Notes under the pieces: generated by a model
Databases searched by the model: none
What the model was told of the DNA's origin: nothing
Seen by the model: only the letters and a program-made list of their open reading frames with translations
Translations under genes and position numbers: made by a program
Source: Candidatus Nealsonbacteria bacterium
GTDB lineage: Bacteria; Patescibacteriota; Minisyncoccia; Minisyncoccales; MHMH01
DNA: 64,000 bases
Direction of reading: 5' to 3'
Assembly (NCBI GenBank): GCA_016188865.1
Contig: JACPGX010000005.1
Coordinates: forward strand, 114,081 to 178,080
Part shown: positions 12,778-51,743 of the stretch, in pieces
Numbering within the stretch: position 1 is the first letter of the stretch
How the letters are laid out: the number at the start of each line of letters is the position of its first letter

Positions 12778-13452
12778 TCAATCAAGTAATTGTTTTTCAT
12801 CTAGTATTTTGGATAAATCTTTAGCTCCGCTTGTTTCCACGAATAATTTATACTTTTCACTGCTAGAAAATTGTTTGGTGACAATGCCAGTTTCTAAAAG
12901 ATTTCCCCACCGATTTTTATTTATACAATCCTGGTAACTAGAATAAGGGAAGAGGTGTTCTCTGTCGGCCCATTCCTTGATTTCTCTTGGATTGCGGTGA
13001 ATATAAGCGGAGAGATAAAGAAGCTGGTCGTCATTTTTAATATGGACAATTTGAAATGGGCCCTGAAAAAGATGCCCCGAGATTTTATATTTTGTATTGA
13101 AGTATTTTGTATAAGCGTTTAAAACTCTTTGCATATATTGGGAAATACCGTTTTCTTTTAATCCGTGGATAATTAAATGGAAATGATTTGGCATCAGCGT
13201 GAAATTAATCAATTCTATGCTTCGATTTTTTATTATTTCCTCTACAACCTCCCGCGAGATGTTAAACACCGAGTGTCTAACAAAGCAGGCAACTTGTCTG
13301 CCGAGATTATAGAAAGTCAAATGAGATTGGCAGTGAGTGATTAAGAAAAGAAATCTTATCCAATCTTTTTCATCACGAAAAACTGGTTGTTTATTATTAC
13401 CCCTATTGTAGATGTGATAATATTCTCCGGAAACAATTTTAACTTTTCTCAT
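12778..13452 (-). CDS. REP-associated tyrosine transposase (RAYT / IS200-IS605-like HUH Y1 transposase), paralog 1
   Basis: HUH motif MPNHFHLII, catalytic Tyr motif YIHRNP, and an N-terminal GEYYHIYNRG beta-strand. It is flanked on both sides by cognate hairpins. Confidence 0.75.
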   Translation of the reverse strand: MRKVKIVSGEYYHIYNRGNNKQPVFRDEKDWIRFLFLITHCQSHLTFYNLGRQVACFVRHSVFNISREVVEEIIKNRSIELINFTLMPNHFHLIIHGLKENGISQYMQRVLNAYTKYFNTKYKISGHLFQGPFQIVHIKNDDQLLYLSAYIHRNPREIKEWADREHLFPYSSYQDCINKNRWGNLLETGIVTKQFSSSEKYKLFVETSGAKDLSKILDEKQLLD

Positions 13453-18258: not shown

Positions 18259-19749
18259 GTGAAAATCCTGCTTTTATATCCTAGGTTTCCCAGGACTTTC
18301 TGGGGATTTAAATACGCTTTACCCTTTATCGGAAAAAAGGCGACTTTTCCGCCCCTAGGATTATTAACGGTAGCGACTTTGCTGCCTCAAGATTGGGAAA
18401 AAAGAATAATTGATCTAAATATTGGAGATTTTAGTGGAAAAGATCTTCAATGGGCAGATTTGATTTTTATTTCAGCCATGGCCCTGCAGAAAGAATCGGT
18501 CTGGGAGATTATATATCATGCTAAAAAATTAGGAAAAAAAATTGTTGCCGGCGGGCCGCTTTTTACCACCGGTTACGAAGAATTTTTTAATAATATCGAT
18601 CATTTTGTTTTGGGCGAAGCGGAAGATGTCATGCCTCTTTTGGTCCAGGATTTAGAAAGGGGCAGTTTGCAGAAAATTTATCAATCCAACCAGCGGCCAG
18701 AGGCTGATAAAATTCCTCTGCCTTCGTGGGAATTAATTGATATGAACAAATACGCCTCGATGAGCATCCAGTTTTCCAGAGGCTGTCCTTTTAATTGCGA
18801 ATTTTGCGACATAGTTTATTTAAATGGCAGAGTTCCAAGAGTAAAAAATAAAGAACAGGTTTTGGCCGAGCTCGATGCTTTATACTTCAACGGTTGGCGT
18901 GGTAATGTATTTTTCGTAGACGATAATTTTATTGGGAATAAAATAAAGTTAAAAAGAGAAATTTTGCCAGCTATTATTGGATGGATGGGAGCCAAAAGGC
19001 ATCCTTTCTCTTTTCATACGCAAGTTTCTATTAATCTTGCCGACGACCTAGAACTGATAAAATTGATGACCATGGCCGGTTTCGATACTGTTTTTATCGG
19101 CATAGAGAGCCCCAAAGAAGAGAGCCTTAAGGGCTGCGGAAAAGTGCAGAATATTAACCGTGATTTATTGAACTCGATAAGAATTTTTCAAAATAATGGC
19201 TTGCAAGTTCAGGCAGGATTTATCATTGGCTTCGACCAGGATACGCCTTCGATTTTCGACCGCATGACGCTTTTTATCCAAAAAAGCGGCATAGCCATCG
19301 CTATGGTCGGGCTCTTGCAGGCGCCGCCAAAAACTAGATTGTGGGACAGAATGAAGAAAGAGGGAAGATTGGTTTCGCAAGCTAGTGGCGACAATACCAA
19401 TTGCACTATTAATTTTGTCCCTAAAATGAATCGTGAGATTTTGCTTGCTGGCTATAAAAAACTCACCGCTCATATTTATTCGTCTAAATATTACTATCAA
19501 AGATTGAAAACTTTTTTGAAAGAATATAAGCCCGAAAGGAAGAAGATATCCCGTCGGATTAGCTTTAGCCGGCTTCTGGCTTTTCCTAAATCGCTTTGGT
19601 TTTTAGGGTTCATGCATAAGGAGAGAATTTATTACTGGGAGCTTCTTTTTTGGTGTTTTTTTAGAAAGCCTAAATTTTTTCCGATGGTTATTGATATGGC
19701 GATTAAGGGATTCCATTTCCGTAAAATTTCAGAAAACCACCTATGTTAA
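18259..19749 (+). CDS. B12-binding domain radical SAM protein (class B, DUF4070-type C-terminus); GTG start
   Basis: An N-terminal cobalamin-binding Rossmann segment and a CPFNCEFC (CxxxCxxC) radical SAM cluster motif. Confidence 0.8.
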   Translation: MKILLLYPRFPRTFWGFKYALPFIGKKATFPPLGLLTVATLLPQDWEKRIIDLNIGDFSGKDLQWADLIFISAMALQKESVWEIIYHAKKLGKKIVAGGPLFTTGYEEFFNNIDHFVLGEAEDVMPLLVQDLERGSLQKIYQSNQRPEADKIPLPSWELIDMNKYASMSIQFSRGCPFNCEFCDIVYLNGRVPRVKNKEQVLAELDALYFNGWRGNVFFVDDNFIGNKIKLKREILPAIIGWMGAKRHPFSFHTQVSINLADDLELIKLMTMAGFDTVFIGIESPKEESLKGCGKVQNINRDLLNSIRIFQNNGLQVQAGFIIGFDQDTPSIFDRMTLFIQKSGIAIAMVGLLQAPPKTRLWDRMKKEGRLVSQASGDNTNCTINFVPKMNREILLAGYKKLTAHIYSSKYYYQRLKTFLKEYKPERKKISRRISFSRLLAFPKSLWFLGFMHKERIYYWELLFWCFFRKPKFFPMVIDMAIKGFHFRKISENHLC

Positions 19750-19851
19750 CTATCCGGTTCGGATTTCTGTCCCGCAACCGTCTAGTGCATCGTTCTCGGT
19801 GATCGAGGTGCGTCGAAAATCATCAAGTGGGGAATTTTTGCACACCAAAAT

Positions 19852-19880
19852 TTGACAAAAAAGTTTAGAATGCTATATTG
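19852..19880 (+). promoter_or_regulatory. Sigma70-like promoter (TTGACA-17-TATATT)
   Basis: Consensus -35, a 17-nt spacer and a near-consensus -10, upstream of a small ORF with an AAGGAGG SD. Confidence 0.55.
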
Positions 19881-19925
19881 CTTGTAGCAAATTTAAATGT
19901 ATATTTGTTGCAAGGAGGTAGTTAA

Positions 19926-20057
19926 ATGACAATATATCATGATAATGAAAAAAGATTATTTAAAATTCGCGAGCGCCTGGAGGAATATCGAAAACATAAG
20001 AATGACCCTTATGTCTATTATTTAGACGTTGAACGTCTAACATTGAGACCAAAATAA
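19926..20057 (+). CDS. Small hypothetical protein (43 aa, MTIYHDNEKRLFKIRERLEEYRKHKNDPYVYYLDVERLTLRPK)
   Basis: A strong SD (AAGGAGG) lies 7 nt upstream. A promoter lies upstream. The stop codon abuts the inverted repeat at 20056. Confidence 0.35.
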   Translation: MTIYHDNEKRLFKIRERLEEYRKHKNDPYVYYLDVERLTLRPK

Positions 20058-20075
20058 TGGTGCCTGTCCCCATTT
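20056..20075. repeat. 20-bp terminal-inverted-repeat-like element AATGGTGCCTGTCCCCATTT, copy A
   Basis: Reverse-complement copies lie at 20914-20933 and 22305-22325. A same-orientation copy lies at 20948-20968. Confidence 0.8.
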
Positions 20076-20128
20076 TCATTTTTGCTATGGGTGTAGGGCG
20101 ACTGAAACGCATTGCGTAAGCTCCCCCC

Positions 20129-20158
20129 TTTACAAAAATTTGGTTTAGGCGTATAATG
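20129..20158 (+). promoter_or_regulatory. Sigma70-like promoter (TTTACA-18-TATAAT)
   Basis: A consensus -10. It is followed by SD AAGGAGG and ATG 20207. Confidence 0.5.
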
Positions 20159-20206
20159 CAATATTCCAGTTAGATGGAAAGAGATTTGGTGTAAGGAGGG
20201 TATAGA

Positions 20207-20578
20207 ATGGAGAAAAAAAGAAAAAGGGAAACTTTCTTCTGTCCTCAATCTATAAATGAGGTTGAAAAGCAGAAAAAGAGGACGGGAATTCCTAGCACTT
20301 GTTCTTTGGATGAAATGGTCAAAATATTGAAGGATAATAGCAAGGAGCCAGTTTTCGTTACTATAGCTCAATTACGAGGATATCCGGCATATGGTATATA
20401 CGATGAAGCTGGACAAAAAAATCCACCGTATGGTTTCCATTTTGATGCTCAGATAATGGTGCCAGGAGGTGGTGTTACTACACACACTAGTCTTCTAGTG
20501 AGTGGTGAATTTCTTGAAGAAACGGGAGCAAAAGATCGCGACGAAGTGATAATTATCATAGCCAAAAGAGAAAAGTAA
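20207..20578 (+). CDS. Hypothetical protein, possible ribbon-helix-helix-like N-terminus (cargo of an inverted-repeat-bounded element)
   Basis: It has its own promoter, SD and terminator. It lies between inverted repeats A and B. Confidence 0.4.
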   Translation: MEKKRKRETFFCPQSINEVEKQKKRTGIPSTCSLDEMVKILKDNSKEPVFVTIAQLRGYPAYGIYDEAGQKNPPYGFHFDAQIMVPGGGVTTHTSLLVSGEFLEETGAKDRDEVIIIIAKREK

Positions 20579-20588
20579 GAATAGTGAA

Positions 20589-20630
20589 GGCCTAGAGGGT
20601 AACAAACTCTCTGGCCTTTTTATTTTTTAC
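20589..20630 (+). terminator. Rho-independent terminator
   Basis: A GGCCTAGAG...CTCTCTGGCC hairpin followed by TTTTTATTTTTT. Confidence 0.7.
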
Positions 20631-20913
20631 CCCGACCGAGACGCACCGGTGGAAGAGCTCAAAATAGCCTAATTTTTCCTCTGATAACTTGGTTCTAGAC
20701 CGGGGCACACAGCAAACTGAAATTTCCCCGAACAGGGGAAATTGAAGTTTGCTTGTGGGGTTTTCGGTGAGAATCAAGTCCCTGAATTCCGAGCCCACAG
20801 GCGAGGGAATGCCTTCGGGCAACTCTTCGAATTCAAGTCCCGCAGCCATCATATGCTAAGTCAGGTGACTGAGATGCATGTCTAAAATCGTAACGAAAAA
20901 TCACCGTAATGGT

Positions 20914-20933
20914 AAATGGGGACAGGCACCATT
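20914..20933. repeat. Inverted copy B of the 20-bp repeat (AAATGGGGACAGGCACCATT)
   Basis: It is the reverse complement of copy A. Confidence 0.8.
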
Positions 20934-20947
20934 TCTAATCTATTTGT

Positions 20948-20968
20948 AATGGTGCCCGCCCCCATTTT
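20948..20968. repeat. Copy C of the 20-bp repeat (AATGGTGCCCGCCCCCATTTT)
   Basis: It is in the same orientation as copy A and lies 15 nt after copy B. Confidence 0.7.
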
Positions 20969-21248
20969 CATCATTTTCACGAGGTTAAAAAAGAACGCGG
21001 AAAGGAATATTACAAATACACCAAAATAATGATGTTGCAAAAATTCAGCTTCGAAGGGTTTTTAAAGGCGCTGGAGGAGGGGAAAGTCCTCGTGGATTTT
21101 GATGCGCGCACCGGTCATAACCACGGAACAAAATTTAGAATGCGACAGGATTGCTTACCGATGCTTTATAAAAAGGCCACGAAGGTTCTTCCTTAAAATA
21201 TAACCGGCCATATAATCAATAGCTAAATAAATTAAATACAGTGCCAAT

Positions 21249-21437
21249 TTAGGCGTTTTTGCTTGATTTTGGTGTTCGATTTCGTAAATCGAACATTTTC
21301 TTTATCTCCTTAATTTGAGAATCAATGGAGAGCGCTTCATCCCTTTCAGTTGACTTCCTGGCGTAGAGGCAATAACGGAGAGGGGCGAGAATTGGCTGCT
21401 GCTCTCGAGCCGTTTCGATTGTTGTTTGTTGTTCCAT
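21249..21437 (-). pseudogene. Serine recombinase (resolvase/invertase) N-terminal fragment
   Basis: The translation contains YCLYARKSTERDEALSIDSQIKEIKKM, matching the catalytic-serine motif YxRVSTxxQ...SLxxQ. The frame breaks after about 60 aa. Confidence 0.5.
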
Positions 21438-21530
21438 AAAAGTCCCTTAAAATACTTGTTTTTTACCTTCGACCTTTCAAGACAAGGGATGACGCAACCC
21501 TCCTAGGGAGTCCAGTCCTGTTATCCCTAG

Positions 21531-22004
21531 TCAAGTCTTGCTGGGGATAAACGGCGTTCCGCGCCGAAGGACCGCATAAATGCGCGAAAGGAGTTTTCGT
21601 GTCGTGGCAACGGTCGCCACGGTATAGCATTTCCCTTCACTTCGTTTCTTTTCGTAATATGCTTTGAGTTCCGGATCAAACATACGCGCGACATTCGCCG
21701 CGATAAAGAGCGCTCTCCGGAGATAGGGCGATCCCCGTTTCGTAAGTTTGCCGTAGCTATTCAATGCGTGGCCGCTTCGGCGAATTATGGTTTGGAGAAG
21801 CGCGACTTCCGGCTCACGCTGTGATCGAGCGAAGAGTTCTCGTTCATGAGTGCGGATGGCATCTGCCAATGCTTCGCCACTCTGCTCTAATCGATTGCGG
21901 AGAGCCTCGAGTGACGGCGTGGAGCTTTGAAAATCAATGCTTTGCTGTGATCTGTACCCCGAAAAGTGGACACATTTGATCTGTACCCAGAAAAGTGGAC
22001 ACAT
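21531..22004 (-). pseudogene. IS110-family transposase, C-terminal fragment only
   Basis: GKLTKRGSPYLRRALFIAANVARMFDPELKAYYEKKRSEGKCYTVATVATTRKLL matches the Transposase_20 (IS116/IS110/IS902) C-terminal domain. The N-terminal DEDD domain is absent. Confidence 0.7.
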
Positions 22005-22005
22005 T
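21949..22005. repeat. Tandem direct repeat, two copies of about 29 bp (GATCTGTACCCCGAAAAGTGGACACATTT)
   Basis: Two adjacent copies with one indel and one substitution. It lies inside the degraded IS110 region. Confidence 0.8.
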
Positions 22006-22061
22006 GTGTCCCTTTTTTGTAGTTTTGGTAAGATGTAAAGGTAAAATTAAGCATAAAAAAT

Positions 22062-22355
22062 ATGAACAGAAAAATATTTACAGAGGAGCAGATAAAAGAG
22101 CTATCCAGGAACAAAAACGTGCGCCGCTGCGGCGCCAAGTCCGTGAGATACAAAAGGAGCTTCAAGGAATCAGCCCTCAGGCGGTACCATGAGGAAGGAT
22201 TGAGCGCGGTTGAAATATTCAAGGCAGCCGGCTTTAATCTGAACATCATCGGCATCAGGAAGCCTAACAAGCTGATGCACCAGTGGAGCAGGGCTCCCTG
22301 CAATAAATGGGGACAGGCACCATTTCCAATCTATAGTCCTTATGTTATTGTCTAA
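22062..22355 (+). pseudogene. Transposase-associated HTH protein fragment
   Basis: MNRKIFTEEQIKELSRNKNV...LSAVEIFKAAGF is an HTH typical of the N-terminal ORF of IS elements. The reading frame runs through the 20-bp repeat copy D. Confidence 0.35.
22305..22325. repeat. Inverted copy D of the 20-bp repeat (AAATGGGGACAGGCACCATTT)
   Basis: It is in the same orientation as copy B and bounds the IS-remnant island on the right. Confidence 0.8.
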
Positions 22356-22610
22356 GCGGGACACAATGGGTTTTGTTTGATTTCGTAAATCAAACAAATC
22401 AAACAATTTTTGACGGGAAGTTCTGAGAGAGCTTCCCTTTGTGTTAGTCTGTGAAATAAACTCAACCGAGATGCTTAGTTTTTGGAATCCCAAACCAGCC
22501 AAATTTGTTCCTGAATTTCTGGTTCTAGACCGAGGATGCCAGCAGTCTAGTGCTGAGTATCGAGGACCGAGAGGGATCATTATAGTTAATGAGATAAAAG
22601 AAAAGCAGGA

Positions 22611-22982
22611 TTAGTTATCCTGCTTTTGCAATAGTTTTTTTAGATGAGGTATTACTATTTTTTTAGCTATGAAATCTACGGGGCAAGTTATTCCATGAGC
22701 CCAACGCGTAATTGTCGGACGCGATACATCGAATTCTCTAGCGAGTTGTTGTTCACTTCCCGGGTTCTTAGACAGAAAAGCGTTTAGTAAGTCATACATT
22801 TCTGGCTGTCCGTAATTTTTGAGTGTGACGCAAGGATAGAATCCGCCATCTGCGCCTTTTTGACGTTCGATTCCAGCGATTACTACGGCTACTAGTTTGT
22901 CGTCTTCATAGACCAATACGCGAGCGGGGCGTTCTGAAGTTGCGACTTCAGATTCCGTTTCAACTCTTATCATTTCGCTCAT
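22611..22982 (-). CDS. HTH DNA-binding protein (C-terminal helix-turn-helix LAREFDVSRPTITRWAHG)
   Basis: A small protein with a C-terminal HTH. It is divergently oriented to the Cys-rich repeat protein operon. The start is chosen at the MSEMIRV ATG. Confidence 0.4.
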   Translation of the reverse strand: MSEMIRVETESEVATSERPARVLVYEDDKLVAVVIAGIERQKGADGGFYPCVTLKNYGQPEMYDLLNAFLSKNPGSEQQLAREFDVSRPTITRWAHGITCPVDFIAKKIVIPHLKKLLQKQDN

Positions 22983-23070
22983 AACTTTTCCTCCACACAT
23001 CAGTTTTTAAGGTTCCTTTCCAAACAGTAGCATATTCTTTAGTTATCCACAAGACAGTATTGACAGGGTT

Positions 23071-23079
23071 TGGTATAAT
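23071..23079 (+). promoter_or_regulatory. Extended -10 promoter element (TGgTATAAT) giving a near-leaderless transcript for the 23086 gene
   Basis: TGnTATAAT ends 6 nt before ATG 23086. An upstream TTGACA is too close (8 nt) to serve as a -35. Confidence 0.4.
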
Positions 23080-23085
23080 AAAGGC

Positions 23086-23313
23086 ATGAGAAATATTATT
23101 ATTTTTATTATCGTTTTAGTGTTAGCTGCAGCCGGAGCTTATTATTTCGGCTATCAGCAGGGTTTTTCCAAAGGGAAAGAAATGGGGAAGGCCGCGGCTG
23201 AAGTTGGCGCTGGCGCTGCGGTGGAAAATCCGCTAGAGGAAATGCCGTCAACCAATCCTTTCGAGGAGGCGGTAAATCCATTTAAGGATTTATATAAGAA
23301 TCCATTTAAATAA
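23086..23313 (+). CDS. Small membrane-anchored hypothetical protein (75 aa)
   Basis: An N-terminal TM helix, then a Gly/Ala-rich segment and NPF repeats. Confidence 0.5.
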   Translation: MRNIIIFIIVLVLAAAGAYYFGYQQGFSKGKEMGKAAAEVGAGAAVENPLEEMPSTNPFEEAVNPFKDLYKNPFK

Positions 23314-23330
23314 TATTATTTAAATGGATT
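23299..23330. promoter_or_regulatory. 32-bp perfect AT-rich palindrome (AATCCATTTAAATAAT|ATTATTTAAATGGATT) spanning the stop of the 23086 gene and the start codon of the Cys-rich gene
   Basis: It has perfect 16-bp arms. ATG 23324 lies within the right arm. Confidence 0.7.
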
Positions 23331-25030
23331 TTAAATTTATGAAGAAATATTATTTTTTATTAATTTTTATTTTTGTATTATTTTCCGGAGTTTTAGTTTT
23401 TGCTACCTCCAAAGAAGATATTACTTATCCTGTAGCTTCGTTGGGAAATTGCAAAAACGAAGCGGATTGTCTAGCTTACTGCGACAAGCCGGAAAATATG
23501 GAGCCCTGTCTTAATTTTGCCGAAAAGCATAATTTAATTACCGATAAAGAGATTGCTATAGCCAGAAAAATGCTGGCTGCAGGAAAAACTTCGGGACCCG
23601 GAGGCTGTAAAGGACAAGTTGAGTGCGGAAATTATTGTGATGACATGAGTCATATAAAAGAATGCGTTGCTTTTGCGGAAGAAAATGATTTGATGATGCC
23701 GGAAGAATTAGCAGAGGCAAAAAAAGTTGCCGCGGCCCTAGAAAGGGGGGTTCAACCTCCGCCGTGCAGCAGTAAAACAGAGTGCGATAGCGTTTGCACT
23801 CTTCCCGAAAACATGAGAACCTGCATTATTTTTGCTAAAGAAGCCGGTTTAATGCCTCCGGAAGAACTGGAAGAAGTTGAAAAAGTTTTAGCAGCGCTTG
23901 ATAAAGGAATAACGCCTCCGCCTTGCGGAGGTAGGGATAAATGCGATGAGTATTGTTCTTTGCCAGAAAATTTTGAAACCTGCATTACTTTTGCCGAAGC
24001 AGCTGGCTTTATGTCGGCAGAAGAAGCAGCTATGGTCAGGCGTACTGGGGGCAAGGGTCCGGGTGATTGTCGCGGCAAAGAAGCATGCGAAGCGTTTTGT
24101 GAAGACCCGGCTAATATGGAGCCATGTATAAATTTTGCTATTGAAAATGGTTTTATGTCCCCCGAAGAGGCGGAGCAAGCTAGAAAAATGCTAGCTGCCG
24201 GGTTTACTTCGGGCCCGGGTGGATGCAAGGGGCAGGGAGAATGCGAAGCTTATTGCGATGATATGACTCATATGACAGAATGCGTTGATTTTGCTGAAAA
24301 AGCCGGCTTTATGACTGCAGAAGATGCTGCTCGAGCCAGAAAAATGGCAGAAATGGGCATGACTGGCGGTCCGGGAGGTTGCAAGGGCGAAGAAGAATGC
24401 CGGTCATTCTGCGAAGACCCTGCCAATATGAATACTTGCATTGATTTTGCAGTTCAAATTGGCGATATGAGCCCCGAAGAAGCTGATCAAGCCCGCCAAA
24501 GAATGGGGCAGATGCAAGAGATGGAGGGCCGGATGAAAGAATGTTTAGTAATGCCCTGTCCGGATGCTCTTGCTTGTTTCCAAAGTATTCAAGGTGAACA
24601 AGGCGGCTCACCAGAAGAAGGTGAAGCAGGCGAGGGCGGCGGCGCTATGGGTTCCAGCGCAGAAATTCAGACTAAGATAGAATCCTGCATACAGGAAATG
24701 CAGCAGCAAGGTGGCGGGGAAGGAGCAGGTTTTGGTCCGGGTTCGGAAATGATGCCGCCTGAAGGGTTTGAAGGAGAAATGCCGCCGTTTAATCAAGGAG
24801 AATTTCATGAAGGCCAAATACCAGAAGGTTTTGTACCATCGGAAGGTATGAGCCAACCTCCTTCCCAAGAAGAAATGGAGAGAATAATTCAAGAAGAAAC
24901 TCAAAGAAGAATTCAGGAGGAAACTCAAAGAATGATGGAGCAATTTGTTCCGCCTCCATCTACCGAACCTCCGCCGCAGTCTTTTTTAAACCAAGTCAAA
25001 AATTTCTTAGCAGGCTTAATGGTAAGATAA
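23324..25030 (+). CDS. Secreted cysteine-rich tandem-repeat protein (about 7.5 modules of about 48 aa with the spacing C-x5-C-x3-C-x8-C and a PENM...C..FAE..G motif) with an acidic Gly/Pro/Gln-rich C-terminal tail
   Basis: An N-terminal signal peptide. The repeats are visible in the translation (CLAYCDKPENMEPCLNFAEKHN, CGNYCDDMSHIKECVAFAEEND, CDSVCTLPENMRTCIIFAKEAG, and so on). GC content is higher than in the flanks. Confidence 0.7.
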   Translation: MDFKFMKKYYFLLIFIFVLFSGVLVFATSKEDITYPVASLGNCKNEADCLAYCDKPENMEPCLNFAEKHNLITDKEIAIARKMLAAGKTSGPGGCKGQVECGNYCDDMSHIKECVAFAEENDLMMPEELAEAKKVAAALERGVQPPPCSSKTECDSVCTLPENMRTCIIFAKEAGLMPPEELEEVEKVLAALDKGITPPPCGGRDKCDEYCSLPENFETCITFAEAAGFMSAEEAAMVRRTGGKGPGDCRGKEACEAFCEDPANMEPCINFAIENGFMSPEEAEQARKMLAAGFTSGPGGCKGQGECEAYCDDMTHMTECVDFAEKAGFMTAEDAARARKMAEMGMTGGPGGCKGEEECRSFCEDPANMNTCIDFAVQIGDMSPEEADQARQRMGQMQEMEGRMKECLVMPCPDALACFQSIQGEQGGSPEEGEAGEGGGAMGSSAEIQTKIESCIQEMQQQGGGEGAGFGPGSEMMPPEGFEGEMPPFNQGEFHEGQIPEGFVPSEGMSQPPSQEEMERIIQEETQRRIQEETQRMMEQFVPPPSTEPPPQSFLNQVKNFLAGLMVR

Positions 25031-25043
25031 AAAATAAATAAAA

Positions 25044-25075
25044 ACATACGAGAACGGTTCTCGTATGTTTTTATG
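25044..25075. terminator. Bidirectional rho-independent terminator (perfect 12-bp stem ACATACGAGAAC-CG-GTTCTCGTATGT, T-runs on both sides)
   Basis: The hairpin is followed by TTTTTAT on the plus strand. On the minus strand it is followed by TTTTTATTTATTTTTT, downstream of the rnpB 3' end. Its core ACGAGAACGGTTCTCGT also occurs inside miaA and thrS. Confidence 0.8.
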
Positions 25076-25076
25076 T

Positions 25077-25442
25077 CCCAGCAAGTCTATAAGCCGAATT
25101 CTGTTCCGCCTCGTCGGCGGATGGTAATTATCTATCTAGGTCCGACATCGCTGTCGAGACTCTGTGCGAGTTACTTTTAACGAAAGTTCCAAGATGAATC
25201 CCAGAACTTCCGGTTTACTCTTGCTCTTGGGTAAGAATTTAGCCGTTTCACCCTTCGACAAGCTCAGGGCAAGCCCCAAACTAGTGAAGACTCGTCTCTG
25301 TTCGCATCTCTGCCTCGCCCAAAATTTTGGGCGGGCGGCAGGTGTTACCTGCTACCTTTTTAACCCCCGTTAAACGGGGAGTAAGAGTTCGGACTTTCCT
25401 CCAGGCACAGTCTTGTGCCTGGCAATCACCCGACTTACTGGG
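25077..25442 (-). ncRNA. rnpB: RNase P RNA (bacterial type A-like)
   Basis: The minus strand contains GGAGGAAAGTCCGAACTC (P4 5' strand), AGGGTGAAACGGC (the GGGUGAAA region) and ACAGAATTCGGCTTAT (P4 3' strand). A P1 helix forms between CCCAGTAAGTC and GACTTGCTGGG. Confidence 0.8.
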
Positions 25443-41066: not shown

Positions 41067-41108
41067 TTTGCGTTATTCTTGATTTGTATCTTTCCTTAAT
41101 CTATAATA

Positions 41109-41133
41109 ATGTAACGGGTACGACCCGTTACAT
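41109..41133. repeat. REP-like palindrome, family 2 (ATGTAACGGGTACGACCCGTTACAT), at the 5' flank of RAYT-2
   Basis: A perfect 10-bp stem with an ACG loop. It ends at the RAYT-2 start codon. Confidence 0.9.
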
Positions 41134-41851
41134 GCATAATATGCCGGGGAAAAGAAAGGTACAATTTGTTAATGGGGGAATATATCATATCGTAACGAGA
41201 GCCGTTGATGGCACGGAACTTTTTCGTGAACAAGGCGATAATCTTCGGATGACTCATGATATTTTTGAATTTAATGATTTAACGCCACTTTCATCAGCGT
41301 TGCGAATTGTTCATTGTCGAAATAAAAATAACACCATTCCTCTTACTACGGAACGCAGAGAAAGGAAATTATTAGTGGAAATCTTGGCATTTTGTTTTAT
41401 GCCTAACCATGTTCATTTATTACTTAGACAACTTCAAGACAGGGGAGTTCAAAAATTTATGCAAAAATTAGGTGGTTACACCACTTATTATAATAAAAAA
41501 TATCAGAGGCAGGGTTATCTTTTTCAGGGCAGATATCGAGCAGTTCACATTAAAGATGATAAACAATTAATGACGGTATTTGTTTATATTCATACTAATC
41601 CAGTGGCCCTTCTTTACCCGGGCTGGAAAGAAAGAGGTATTAAAGATATTAAAAAGGCCATAGAATTTATTAATCAATATAGATGGTCAAGCTATTTGGA
41701 TTATCTGGGAATTAAGAATTTTCCGTCTTTGACCAGTAGAGAATTTTTAATAAAAACAATAGGTGGAATGGAAGAGTGCCAAAGATTAGTAGAAGATTGG
41801 CTTTATCAAAAACGTGTACTATTTGACCTTGATAAGGTCGCACTGGAATAA
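41132..41851 (+). CDS. REP-associated tyrosine transposase (RAYT), paralog 2
   Basis: HUH motif MPNHVHLLL, Tyr motif YIHTNP, and the C-terminal WSSY motif (RWSSYLDYLG). The start is set at the ATG overlapping the palindrome; 41141 is also possible. The ORF-track start at 41084 reads through the palindrome. Confidence 0.75.
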   Translation: MHNMPGKRKVQFVNGGIYHIVTRAVDGTELFREQGDNLRMTHDIFEFNDLTPLSSALRIVHCRNKNNTIPLTTERRERKLLVEILAFCFMPNHVHLLLRQLQDRGVQKFMQKLGGYTTYYNKKYQRQGYLFQGRYRAVHIKDDKQLMTVFVYIHTNPVALLYPGWKERGIKDIKKAIEFINQYRWSSYLDYLGIKNFPSLTSREFLIKTIGGMEECQRLVEDWLYQKRVLFDLDKVALE

Positions 41852-51032: not shown

Positions 51033-51743
51033 ATGCCGAGTAAAAAAAGGCCGCCATTAGTTAATAGCGAGATATATCATATAGTAATAAGGACAGTAGA
51101 GGATCTTAAACTTTTTCGTGATGACCACGATTTTTTAAGAATGATACATGATTTATTCGCTTTTAATGACACAGTGCCAGTTTCCTCATATTTTCGTAGG
51201 GATAAAGTAACGGGAACGTTTCCCGCTACTTTTATGAAGAGAAAAAGAGAAGTATTGGTTGAAATTTTAGCCTTTTGCTTGATGTCGAATCATGTTCATT
51301 TATTAGTACGTCAATTAAAAGACGATGGAATAAGTAATTTTATGAGAAAAATTGGAGCCGGTTACAGCGCTTATTATAATCAGAAATATAAGAGAGCTGG
51401 TCATGTTTTTCAGGGAAGATATAAAATAGTTCATATAACCAATGATAATCAGCTAAAAACTATTTTTGTATATATTCACACTAATCCAGTGGCAATTATT
51501 TATCCCCACTGGAAGGAGGAAGGGATCGGAATTAAATATTTAGGCAAAGTTATTCAATTTATAGAAGAATACCGTTGGTCAAGTTATTCAGATTATCTTG
51601 GAAATAAAAATTTTCCATCTCTGACTTTCAGAGAATGGTTGATGGGAGAGATTGGCGGGATCAACGAGTGCCGAAGATTTATTAATGATTGGCTGGAAAC
51701 AAAAAAAGATTTAGCTGATTTGGATAAAATTGCTATCAATTAA
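51033..51743 (+). CDS. REP-associated tyrosine transposase (RAYT), paralog 3
   Basis: HUH motif MSNHVHLLV, Tyr motif YIHTNP and the RWSSYSDYLG motif. It is closest to paralog 2. It contains an in-frame copy of its own REP palindrome at 51204-51232. Confidence 0.75.
   Translation: MPSKKRPPLVNSEIYHIVIRTVEDLKLFRDDHDFLRMIHDLFAFNDTVPVSSYFRRDKVTGTFPATFMKRKREVLVEILAFCLMSNHVHLLVRQLKDDGISNFMRKIGAGYSAYYNQKYKRAGHVFQGRYKIVHITNDNQLKTIFVYIHTNPVAIIYPHWKEEGIGIKYLGKVIQFIEEYRWSSYSDYLGNKNFPSLTFREWLMGEIGGINECRRFINDWLETKKDLADLDKIAIN
51204..51232. repeat. REP family 3 palindrome embedded in-frame within the RAYT-3 coding sequence (encodes KVTGTFPATF)
   Basis: AAAGTAACGGGAA-CGT-TTCCCGCTACTTT. It lies in the variable loop between the N-terminal strand and the HUH motif. 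Paralog 2 has no insertion at this position. Confidence 0.85.

Follow-up and report, generated by a model that had tools for sequence, protein, structure and literature searches.

Repeats and gene fragments at the locus

We analysed a stretch of 64,000 nucleotides (the window) from a Candidatus Nealsonbacteria bacterium, a member of the Candidate Phyla Radiation (CPR). Between a DUF4070 radical SAM gene (18259-19749) as left neighbour and a small helix-turn-helix (HTH) gene on the minus strand (22611-23000) as right neighbour, the window contains a locus with four copies of the 20-bp sequence AATGGTGCCTGTCCCCATTT, designated A to D and located at 20056 (plus strand), 20914 (minus), 20948 (plus, with two mismatches) and 22305 (minus), where none would be expected by chance. 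A preliminary description of this DNA had reported four copies, two in each orientation, and all of them were recovered; no further copy is present in the 64 kb, all four lying at this one locus. Taken together, the data described below make it very probable that the locus represents the remains of at least one TIRtron, that is, of a unit in which a Y1/HUH transposase resembling the REP-associated tyrosine transposases (RAYTs; REP, repetitive extragenic palindrome) is flanked by terminal inverted repeats (TIRs), and that the cognate gene, termed TIRYT and here of TnpAY1 subclass 2.1, has been deleted.

All four copies carry a motif of the GGGGWSAS type (GGGGACAG; GGGGGCGG in copy C). When the locus was compared by BLAST with four intact TIRYT units from other contigs, copy D was found to correspond to a 5′-type repeat followed by the complete 32-nt TIRYT leader (22304-22356, plus strand). 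D and its leader (22306-22356, 51 nt) are 92% identical to the unit of locus L067 and 88% identical to that of L162, and the homology breaks off 1 nt short of the ATG. Copy B (20911-20943, plus strand) is likewise of the 5′-type and retains about the first 10 nt of the leader (TTCTAATCTAT), with 91% identity to positions 165-197 of L067. Copy A (TAATGGTGCCTGTCCCCATTTTCAT, core GGGGACAGGCACC; 20051-20078, minus strand; 97% identity to the 3′ TIR of L067) and copy C (20947-20971, minus strand, two mismatches) match the 3′ repeat of the intact units, including the TAA. No coding remnant of a TIRYT was detected in any frame of 19700-22640, either by tblastn or by hidden Markov models (HMMs) built from 6 and from 112 sequences (all E > 0.3). 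Together with the end of the leader homology directly before the start codon, this result indicates that the gene was deleted. Judged by these matches, D is the 5′ end of a gene-deleted unit, B-C a unit without its gene, and A a lone 3′ end.

B and C form a gene-less dimer with a start-to-start distance of 34 nt and the GGGG ends pointing outward, which is the commonest dimer form of the family. It is the only pair at the locus in this natural orientation, the pairs A..B and C..D being inside-out. Since, moreover, truncated genes adjoin C and D, we consider the segments A..B and C..D to be DNA between units and not cargo elements. The ends of the 20-mer are self-complementary (AAATGG/CCATT(T)), a single repeat forming only a weak 6-bp stem, and the dimer (AAAATGGGGACAGGCACC..GGTGCCTGTCCCCATTTT), with a T-rich tract on its 3′ side, is shaped like an intrinsic terminator. 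A terminator scan of the window did not call B-C, the loop being longer than the rule of the scan allows. Pairing of bases beyond the 20-mer was barely above that of shuffled controls and is not used as evidence. No GTAG or GTGG tetranucleotide adjoins any of the four copies, and no target-site duplication is visible, as the flanks GACCAAAAT / TCTAATCTA and TATTTGT / TCCAATCTA are not direct repeats. Likewise, neither the A..B nor the C..D segment has another copy in the window or in the loci fetched for comparison.

The segment between C and D consists of pieces of genes. Homology to the MvaI/BcnI-family restriction endonucleases begins within approximately 10 nt of TIR C and covers the C-terminal third of the protein (20969-21196, plus strand; PF15515, 3.5e-16, profile positions 158-227 of 227); this piece had been overlooked in the preliminary description. 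It is followed by the N-terminal ~47 codons of a serine recombinase or integrase (21296-21437, minus strand; phrog_95 integrase, 3.6e-5), which are cut at a 23-nt palindrome, and by the C-terminal part of an IS110-family transposase (21531-22004, minus strand; 51-55% GC), of which the last ~80 residues match NCBIfam NF033542 (1.8e-13; model positions 264-343 of 343) and Pfam PF02371 and the N-terminal half is absent. The left end of an IS3-family element (21948-22295, plus strand) comprises a tandemly duplicated left inverted repeat (2 x 29 bp, 21948-22005) and the N-terminus of OrfA (22062 to ~22295, 78 of ~143 amino acids), cut ~10-17 nt before TIR D. These profile matches are in line with the earlier picture of a graveyard of mobile elements, in which the N-terminus of a serine recombinase, the C-terminus of an IS110 transposase, an HTH transposase (the IS3-family OrfA) and two copies of a 29-bp tandem repeat had been named, and the 20-bp repeats themselves belong to a mobile-element system.

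The two palindromes that had been described for this segment are both present, although their length is really 23 nt (TGTTCGATTTCGTAAATCGAACA; 21273-21295 and 22374-22396). Their format (TGT, a 7-bp stem, a 3-nt loop and ACA) is that of the palindromes around a RAYT-like gene at 41129-41851 of the window, and, as judged from this format, they may have belonged to a further unit that has since been lost. For three truncated pieces the end lies no more than ~20 nt from a TIR or a 23-nt palindrome, suggesting that the hairpin-forming repeats were the points at which the insertions and deletions behind this junkyard took place.

Intact transposase units in relatives and in the window

In loci L063, L172, L067 and L162 the 20-mer is followed by ~32 nt near-identical to the sequence after D and then by ATG CCC AGA GTC GCA CGA, the start of a gene for a protein of 222-231 amino acids with the signature MPRVARVD...YH[VI][IL]NR...NHWH...YQGRYKS...YIERNP. 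This protein is encoded between a 5′ copy of the 20-mer and an inverted 3′ copy in a Taylorbacteria locus (L148), in three CPR contigs (L067, L162 and L077) and in a contig of 63% GC (L112), all five of which had been selected by the presence of the 20-mer. In these units the 20-mer lies 35-90 nt upstream of the ATG and the inverted copy TAATGGTGCCTGTCCCC at or just past the stop codon, which overlaps the 3′ TIR in L067 and L162. The L148 protein matches Pfam Y1_Tnp (PF01797, 1.7e-16) and just reaches the NCBIfam model NF047646, 'REP-associated tyrosine transposase' (80.2 bits, cutoff 80), whereas with the NCBIfam IS200 model it stays at 18 bits (cutoff 55). At E <= 1e-10, 1,646 protein clusters are homologous to the L067 protein, and those few that carry a name come mostly from CPR bacteria.

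The association was likewise observed in the reverse direction. Four homologues with 54-73% identity to the L067 protein, picked irrespective of the motif, all carried GGGGACAG[GT]CAC[ACGT] 35-50 nt ahead of the ATG and the inverse copy 15-40 nt beyond the stop codon. A Y1 transposase gene between the repeats is thus present in L148, L067, L162, L077, L112 and L179-L186, and the GGGG end faces away from the gene in 9/9 intact units examined. In L179-L181, contigs with a protein named Kaiserbacteria by NCBI, two identical TIRYT genes are arranged in tandem, 1,786 bp apart and with two small open reading frames (ORFs) between them, which indicates that tandem TIRtron arrays with intervening genes exist.

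The window itself contains three intact RAYT-like Y1 transposase paralogues (HMM E 1e-29 to 1e-36; motifs NHFH / FQG / YIH[RT]NP), located at 12778-13452 on the minus strand (palindrome GTTAGACACTCGGTGT..ACACCGAGTGTCTAAC), at 41084/41129-41851 on the plus strand (palindrome TGTAACGGGTACGACCCGTTACA) and at 51033-51743 on the plus strand (palindrome AAAGTAACGGGAAATGTTCCCGCTACTTT). Each is bracketed on both sides by its own palindrome, which occurs nowhere else in the 64 kb save for a half-copy of the first palindrome within its own gene, at 13266. Consequently, such units are normal in this genome.

Distribution of the repeat in other genomes

An exact-match scan yielded the 20-mer in 42 stretches of a collection of species-representative genomes, against an estimated chance expectation of ~4 (18 fixed and 2 two-fold positions, 1.2e12 sites), and in at least 120 metagenome contigs of the Joint Genome Institute (JGI). 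Among the matches listed, the hosts include the CPR groups Nealsonbacteria, Taylorbacteria, Paceibacterota and Saccharibacteria as well as Thermoanaerobaculia, isolates of Collinsella tanakaei, Nitrospirales, Planctomycetota, Armatimonadota, Campylobacterota and others, and the GC content of the loci ranges from 24 to 75%. The exact 20-nt repeat AAATGGGGACAGGCACCATT is common to contigs from many phyla, whereas the TIRYT proteins that it flanks are only ~33% identical to each other. The exact 20-mer was absent from viral contigs, and a full-text literature search with the repeat sequence returned chance matches to human primers and miRNAs only.

The majority of the copies are located in short gaps between genes, directly behind unrelated housekeeping genes and often between convergent genes. 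No recurrent neighbour gene family was found at the motif matches, 108 ORFs compared with Pfam being all housekeeping, and the association with a transposase becomes apparent solely at those loci, a minority, where a master unit is present. Among the 155 distinct occurrences listed, an inverted partner is located within 150 nt downstream in 68 and upstream in 8; the 68 downstream pairs have their GGGG ends outward and a modal start-to-start spacing of 34 nt, as in B-C. Gene-less inverted dimers thereby account for 44% of the listed occurrences.

Several further observations concern individual loci. Arrays of partial copies, for example (GAAATGGGGACAG)n or (CTGTCCCCATTTCTTC)n, resembling a stutter, were present on the gene-distal side of many TIRs (L010/L148, L016, L031, L035 and L182-L186). 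L024 (a Planctomycetota bin) and L029 (an Armatimonadota bin) share near-identical TIR dimers of ~90 bp, including the spacer, in differing genomic contexts, reflecting either horizontal spread of the dimer or a binning error. In L035, which also belongs to Nealsonbacteria, a truncated second copy of the N-terminal part of a membrane protein (1756-2100) immediately precedes a TIR copy and a small gene that has been inserted, and the intact membrane-protein gene is located at 2533, so that a TIR is again found at the boundary of a gene truncation and duplication. By eye, the N-terminus of the intact protein appeared ComEC-like.

Relation to known systems

RAYT-like genes whose flanks carry terminal inverted repeats in place of REPs of the GTAG type have been named TIRYTs and their units TIRtrons; many TIRtron repeats carry GGGGWSAS, and dimers or clusters also occur (Di Nocera et al. 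2013, PMC3733652). Most TIRYTs fall into TnpAY1 subclass 2.1, which has the repeat consensus GGGG[AT][CG]A[CG], a median length of 238 amino acids, the motifs NHVH or NH[YF]H and the class 2 signature Y---NP, and Quentin et al. (2018, PMC6006769) found no REP-like repeats beside subclass 2.1 genes. The motif GGGGACAG as well as the length and the motifs of the relatives' proteins fit these descriptions, and we therefore regard the kind of system as already known. In all likelihood, judging from the sequences, the 20-bp repeats are the TIRs of a TIRYT/RAYT unit and do not represent a new kind of element.

As in the published TIRtrons, the relatives encode a Y1/HUH transposase of ~220-240 amino acids (NHWH, YQGRY and YIERNP, the latter being the class 2 Y---NP) between GGGGWSAS inverted repeats, the repeats also occur as dimers or clusters, and several different units, each with its own repeats, coexist in one genome. 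The locus in the window differs from them in comprising only repeats and a leader, the transposase gene being gone, and in its CPR host. In addition, contigs of 24-75% GC share the full 20-mer and not just its 8-nt motif, and gene-less dimers are common for this 20-mer, unlike what Quentin et al. described for subclass 2.1. With 20 nt conserved exactly between phyla and gene-less dimers this frequent, the data go somewhat beyond PMC3733652 and PMC6006769 for this subclass. The TIRYTs probably correspond to the Group 1 RAYTs of Bertels et al.

There are also clear parallels to the REP/REPIN-RAYT systems: a single-copy Y1 transposase gene amid inverted palindromic repeats, gene-less inverted dimers (REPINs) as the dispersed form, and the match of a relatives' protein to the RAYT model. 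Such systems reportedly include TnpAREP of E. coli and the RAYTs of Pseudomonas, studied by Nunvar in 2010, by Bertels and Rainey in 2011 and by Ton-Hoang in 2012. In contrast to the canonical REP/RAYT unit (REPtron), however, there is no GT[AG]G at the foot of the hairpin and the stem of the single repeat is weak, and the four copies in 64 kb at one locus differ from the hundreds of repeats per genome of REP/REPIN systems. With the IS200/IS605 elements the units share the HUH/Y1 catalytic fold family (PF01797) and the use of subterminal hairpins on single-stranded DNA; they differ from these elements in the low score with the IS200 model, in a longer protein with a C-terminal extension and in the lack of tnpB.

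Interpretation of the locus

Several lines of evidence carry the assignment of the locus to a ruined TIRtron. Both the motif-selected loci and the unbiased reverse test (4/4) tie the 20-mer to TIRYT genes; D matches the leader of an intact unit at 92%, and A, B and C match its 3′ and 5′ TIRs; the prevailing orientation of the repeat pairs elsewhere (68 versus 8) and their modal 34 nt are also those of B-C; no TIRYT coding remnant was detected in 19700-22640; GGGGACAG fits the published GGGGWSAS motif; and the truncation points coincide with repeats in a window that holds three intact RAYT-like units.

By analogy with the HUH/Y1 family, namely TnpA of IS200/IS605 and TnpAREP of E. coli, a TIRYT would recognise the repeat on single-stranded DNA, cleave it and rejoin the ends. 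Its action could spread single repeats and gene-less dimers, as RAYTs do with REPs and REPINs, and would at the same time render the repeat sites prone to rearrangement. At the locus in question, the cognate gene would then have been lost, leaving behind D (the 5′ repeat with the full leader), the B-C dimer and A (a lone 3′ repeat), with the DNA between units presumably consisting of an orphan gene, a 3′ fragment of a tRNA-Gln(CTG) gene and the pieces of the restriction gene, the serine recombinase, IS110 and IS3. Most likely the locus has no present function, save for possible expression of the orphan ORF and a terminator-like action of the repeats.

Several points weigh against this interpretation. 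With neither a TIRYT gene nor a coding remnant at the locus, the assignment rests on the repeats and a leader of 32 nt, and the order A (3′-type) ... B-C (5′-3′) ... D (5′-type) is not that of a single unit. A target-site signature was not found at the four copies, and that the repeats caused the truncations is inferred. Moreover, experimental activity of a TIRYT on GGGGWSAS repeats is not reported in PMC3733652 or PMC6006769, and the cognate TIRYT may lie outside the 64-kb window, elsewhere on the 245-kb contig.

The segment between A and B and the region before A

Just before A, an ORF of 43 amino acids (19926-20057, plus strand) with a promoter-like site at 19852-19879 ends in a stop codon that overlaps TIR A. 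No homologues of it were found, and its identification as a C-terminal remnant of a TIRYT lacks support from the 112-sequence HMM.

The segment from A to B (20079-20910) carries, as had been described before, a promoter, an ORF of 123 amino acids and a terminator, for which we observed a promoter-like site (11/12; 20129-20157, plus strand), a ribosome binding site, the ORF itself (20207-20578, plus strand; locus tag HYV47_03570) and a terminator-like hairpin (20592-20614, plus strand) with a T tract extending to 20623. The ORF is an orphan: among 5.8e9 proteins it matched none but itself, and no match to Pfam, NCBIfam or PHROG was obtained. The sole match among 1.8e9 representatives was dismissed as an artefact of summed repeats in a protein with 11 x 107-aa repeats (23 bits per stretch), and the AlphaFold model (pLDDT 48) is unusable.

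The remainder of the segment had been called GC-rich and structured. The structure was borne out, including the 18-bp hairpin GCAAACTGAAATTTCCCC/GGGGAAATTGAAGTTTGC; the GC content, however, is only moderate, 46-50% versus 35-42% nearby. The folding is strong (z = -5) because of an imperfect palindrome of ~95 nt (20687-20780, no strand assigned), at the centre of which this hairpin is located, and of the B-C hairpin. A stretch of ~80 nt containing TGGTTCTAGACCGGGG (20635-20714, plus strand) has a ~65%-identical, diverged paralogue after D (22465-22544, plus strand) with TGGTTCTAGACCGAGG at 22520. The motif TGGTTCTAGACCGRGG, which was said to occur twice, does so within these paralogous stretches, at 20690 and, with a correction of the second position from 22528, at 22520. 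Neither the ~80-nt stretches nor the 95-nt palindrome matched any fetched locus.

Further downstream, 22 nt from the 3′ end of a tRNA-Gln(CTG) gene (20826-20848) are followed by 23 nt of its downstream flank; the 45 nt (20826-20870, plus strand) are 93% identical to L067, in which the TIRtron is preceded at a distance of ~800 nt by an intact tRNA-Gln(CTG) gene. At the locus itself, the 5′ portion of this gene is missing. Besides this one fragment and the stub of the serine integrase, the window contains no intact tRNA-Gln(CTG) gene and no second identical repeat. Within the locus, Rfam searches of the whole window at the gathering threshold and of 19700-22700 at E <= 10 gave only meaningless matches of B-C to miRNA hairpins, and neither a bridge RNA nor a group II intron was detected in 20626-20913, Rfam 15 possibly holding no bridge-RNA model.

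Alternative explanations

The tRNA fragment raises the question of whether the whole 2.9 kb is a decayed integrative island that once resided at a tRNA-Gln(CTG) gene, with the TIRtron pieces, the restriction gene, the integrase and the insertion sequences (ISs) as passengers. The fragment with its flank points in this direction, as do the N-terminus of a serine integrase, the foreign GC content of the IS110 piece, the gene order of L067 (an intact tRNA-Gln(CTG), then a ClpP-like gene, a TIRtron whose leader is 92% identical and a gene resembling HTH transposases) and the quite different neighbourhood in relatives whose radical SAM protein is 70-73% identical. We nevertheless consider an island rather unlikely, since an intact tRNA-Gln(CTG), a direct repeat matching the tRNA end and a complete integrase are all lacking, and the 3′ end of a nearby tRNA-Gln(TTG) gene differs. 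Of the att-site remnants that had been proposed, only the tRNA-Gln(CTG) 3′ end resembles one, whereas the 20-bp repeats that the proposal referred to are TIRs of a TIRYT. An island would in any case complement the TIRtron identity of the repeats and not replace it.

The position of the 20-mer in other genomes, just past housekeeping genes and often between convergent genes, would also be expected of hairpins that the host has co-opted as bidirectional terminators or mRNA stabilisers and that are kept for this role, and the terminator-shaped dimer with its T-rich tract is consistent with such a use. However, B-C was not called by the terminator scan, pairing of the flanking bases beyond the motif ends barely exceeds that of shuffles, and the strict association with TIRYT genes would be left without an explanation, which makes co-option improbable as the reason for the repeats. 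The two roles, co-opted hairpin and transposase substrate, are not mutually exclusive.

In the preliminary description, A..B and C..D were seen as two adjacent nested or MITE-like elements (MITEs are miniature transposable elements with inverted repeats) bounded by 20-bp TIRs, the first with a promoter-driven cargo ORF. Perfect 20-bp inverted repeats do bound both segments, and dimers of the B-C type act as small repeated elements elsewhere, so that the term MITE-like suits B-C. As element bodies, however, A..B and C..D are very unlikely, and this model is largely refuted: it is inside-out with respect to 9/9 intact units and to 68/76 close inverted pairs, the truncated genes for MvaI/BcnI and IS3 OrfA border C and D on what should be the inside, D bears the missing transposase's leader on what should be its outside, and neither target-site duplications nor copies of the segments in the window or the fetched loci support it.

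Elements of the IS110/IS1111 family insert into REP-like palindromes. Insertion of ISPpu9 in REPs is described in PMC8450116, and the IS110 that left its C-terminal fragment at the locus may once have targeted such a repeat. That the 20-bp repeats are the ends or targets of a decayed IS110 and the GC-rich segment a remnant of its bridge (guide) RNA, as had been put forward, is barely credible, as the 20-mers flank Y1 transposase genes and not IS110 genes in all related loci, the IS110 remnant lacks its N-terminal half, lies ~700 bp off on the opposite strand and touches no 20-mer, and 20626-20913 holds a tRNA fragment and gave no Rfam match at E <= 10 besides the miRNA hairpins, a database (release 15) that may lack a model of such RNAs.

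Significance of the orphan repeats

With the repeats assigned to a ruined TIRtron, the annotation of the locus changes from a bounded graveyard to orphan TIRs of a lost RAYT-like transposase, and the bounded segments are not mobile units. TIRtron/REPtron-type units are common in CPR genomes, given three intact paralogues and a dead one within 64 kb and more than 1,600 protein clusters homologous to the L067 TIRYT. As the 20-nt repeat hardly varies between phyla, it offers a convenient substrate for the biochemistry of TIRYTs. More tentatively, the subclass 2.1 Y1 transposases might run a pan-bacterial REPIN-like system with a near-invariant recognition sequence, whose hairpins would also act as breakpoints in the remodelling of genomes, even the small ones of CPR bacteria; this would presuppose that the dimers are mobilised in trans, and we regard it as conceivable rather than likely.

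Setting of the locus

Logan contigs from several other samples are 100% identical to the window and span 19780-21501 (A-B-C) and 20742-23329 (C-D). As these independent contigs cross the A-B-C and C-D junctions, the arrangement is not a misassembly. Presence/absence polymorphism was not observed among the Logan contigs of the population, all being 100% identical. The ends of the contigs fall in a 30-nt overlap (20742-20771; L001 and L002 stop at 20771 and L004 begins at 20742), which hints that the assembly graph branches, through a variant or a repeat, within the 95-nt palindrome, in its right arm.

The nearest orthologues of the radical SAM protein (70-73% identity) are encoded in a conserved operon, DUF4430-DUF6580-rSAM-DUF362-BioY(-SDR), without such debris. 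The locus is lineage-specific or, strictly speaking, not syntenic in distant relatives with a radical SAM identity of at most 73%. Neither of the two observations that the preliminary description had named as refuting its view, conserved synteny in relatives and a repeat confined to this locus, was made: the nearest relatives found are non-syntenic and the repeat occurs in hundreds of other contigs. In the window, the radical SAM gene stands alone, outside the operon of its orthologues and downstream of dnaX and tRNA-Gln(TTG); this lineage may have acquired the gene or moved it from elsewhere.

Beyond the right neighbour, 23324-25030 encodes a secreted-looking protein of 568 amino acids with Cys-rich repeats of ~45 amino acids (C..C..YCD.P.N...C..FA) and a low-complexity Glu/Pro/Gln tail. 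It is followed on the minus strand by a bacterial class A RNase P RNA (25074-25441; 114.9 bits versus a gathering score of 100), in whose cmscan alignment a portion of the model region from 155 to 279 is poorly aligned or missing; this RNA may resemble the reduced RNase P RNAs reported for CPR bacteria.

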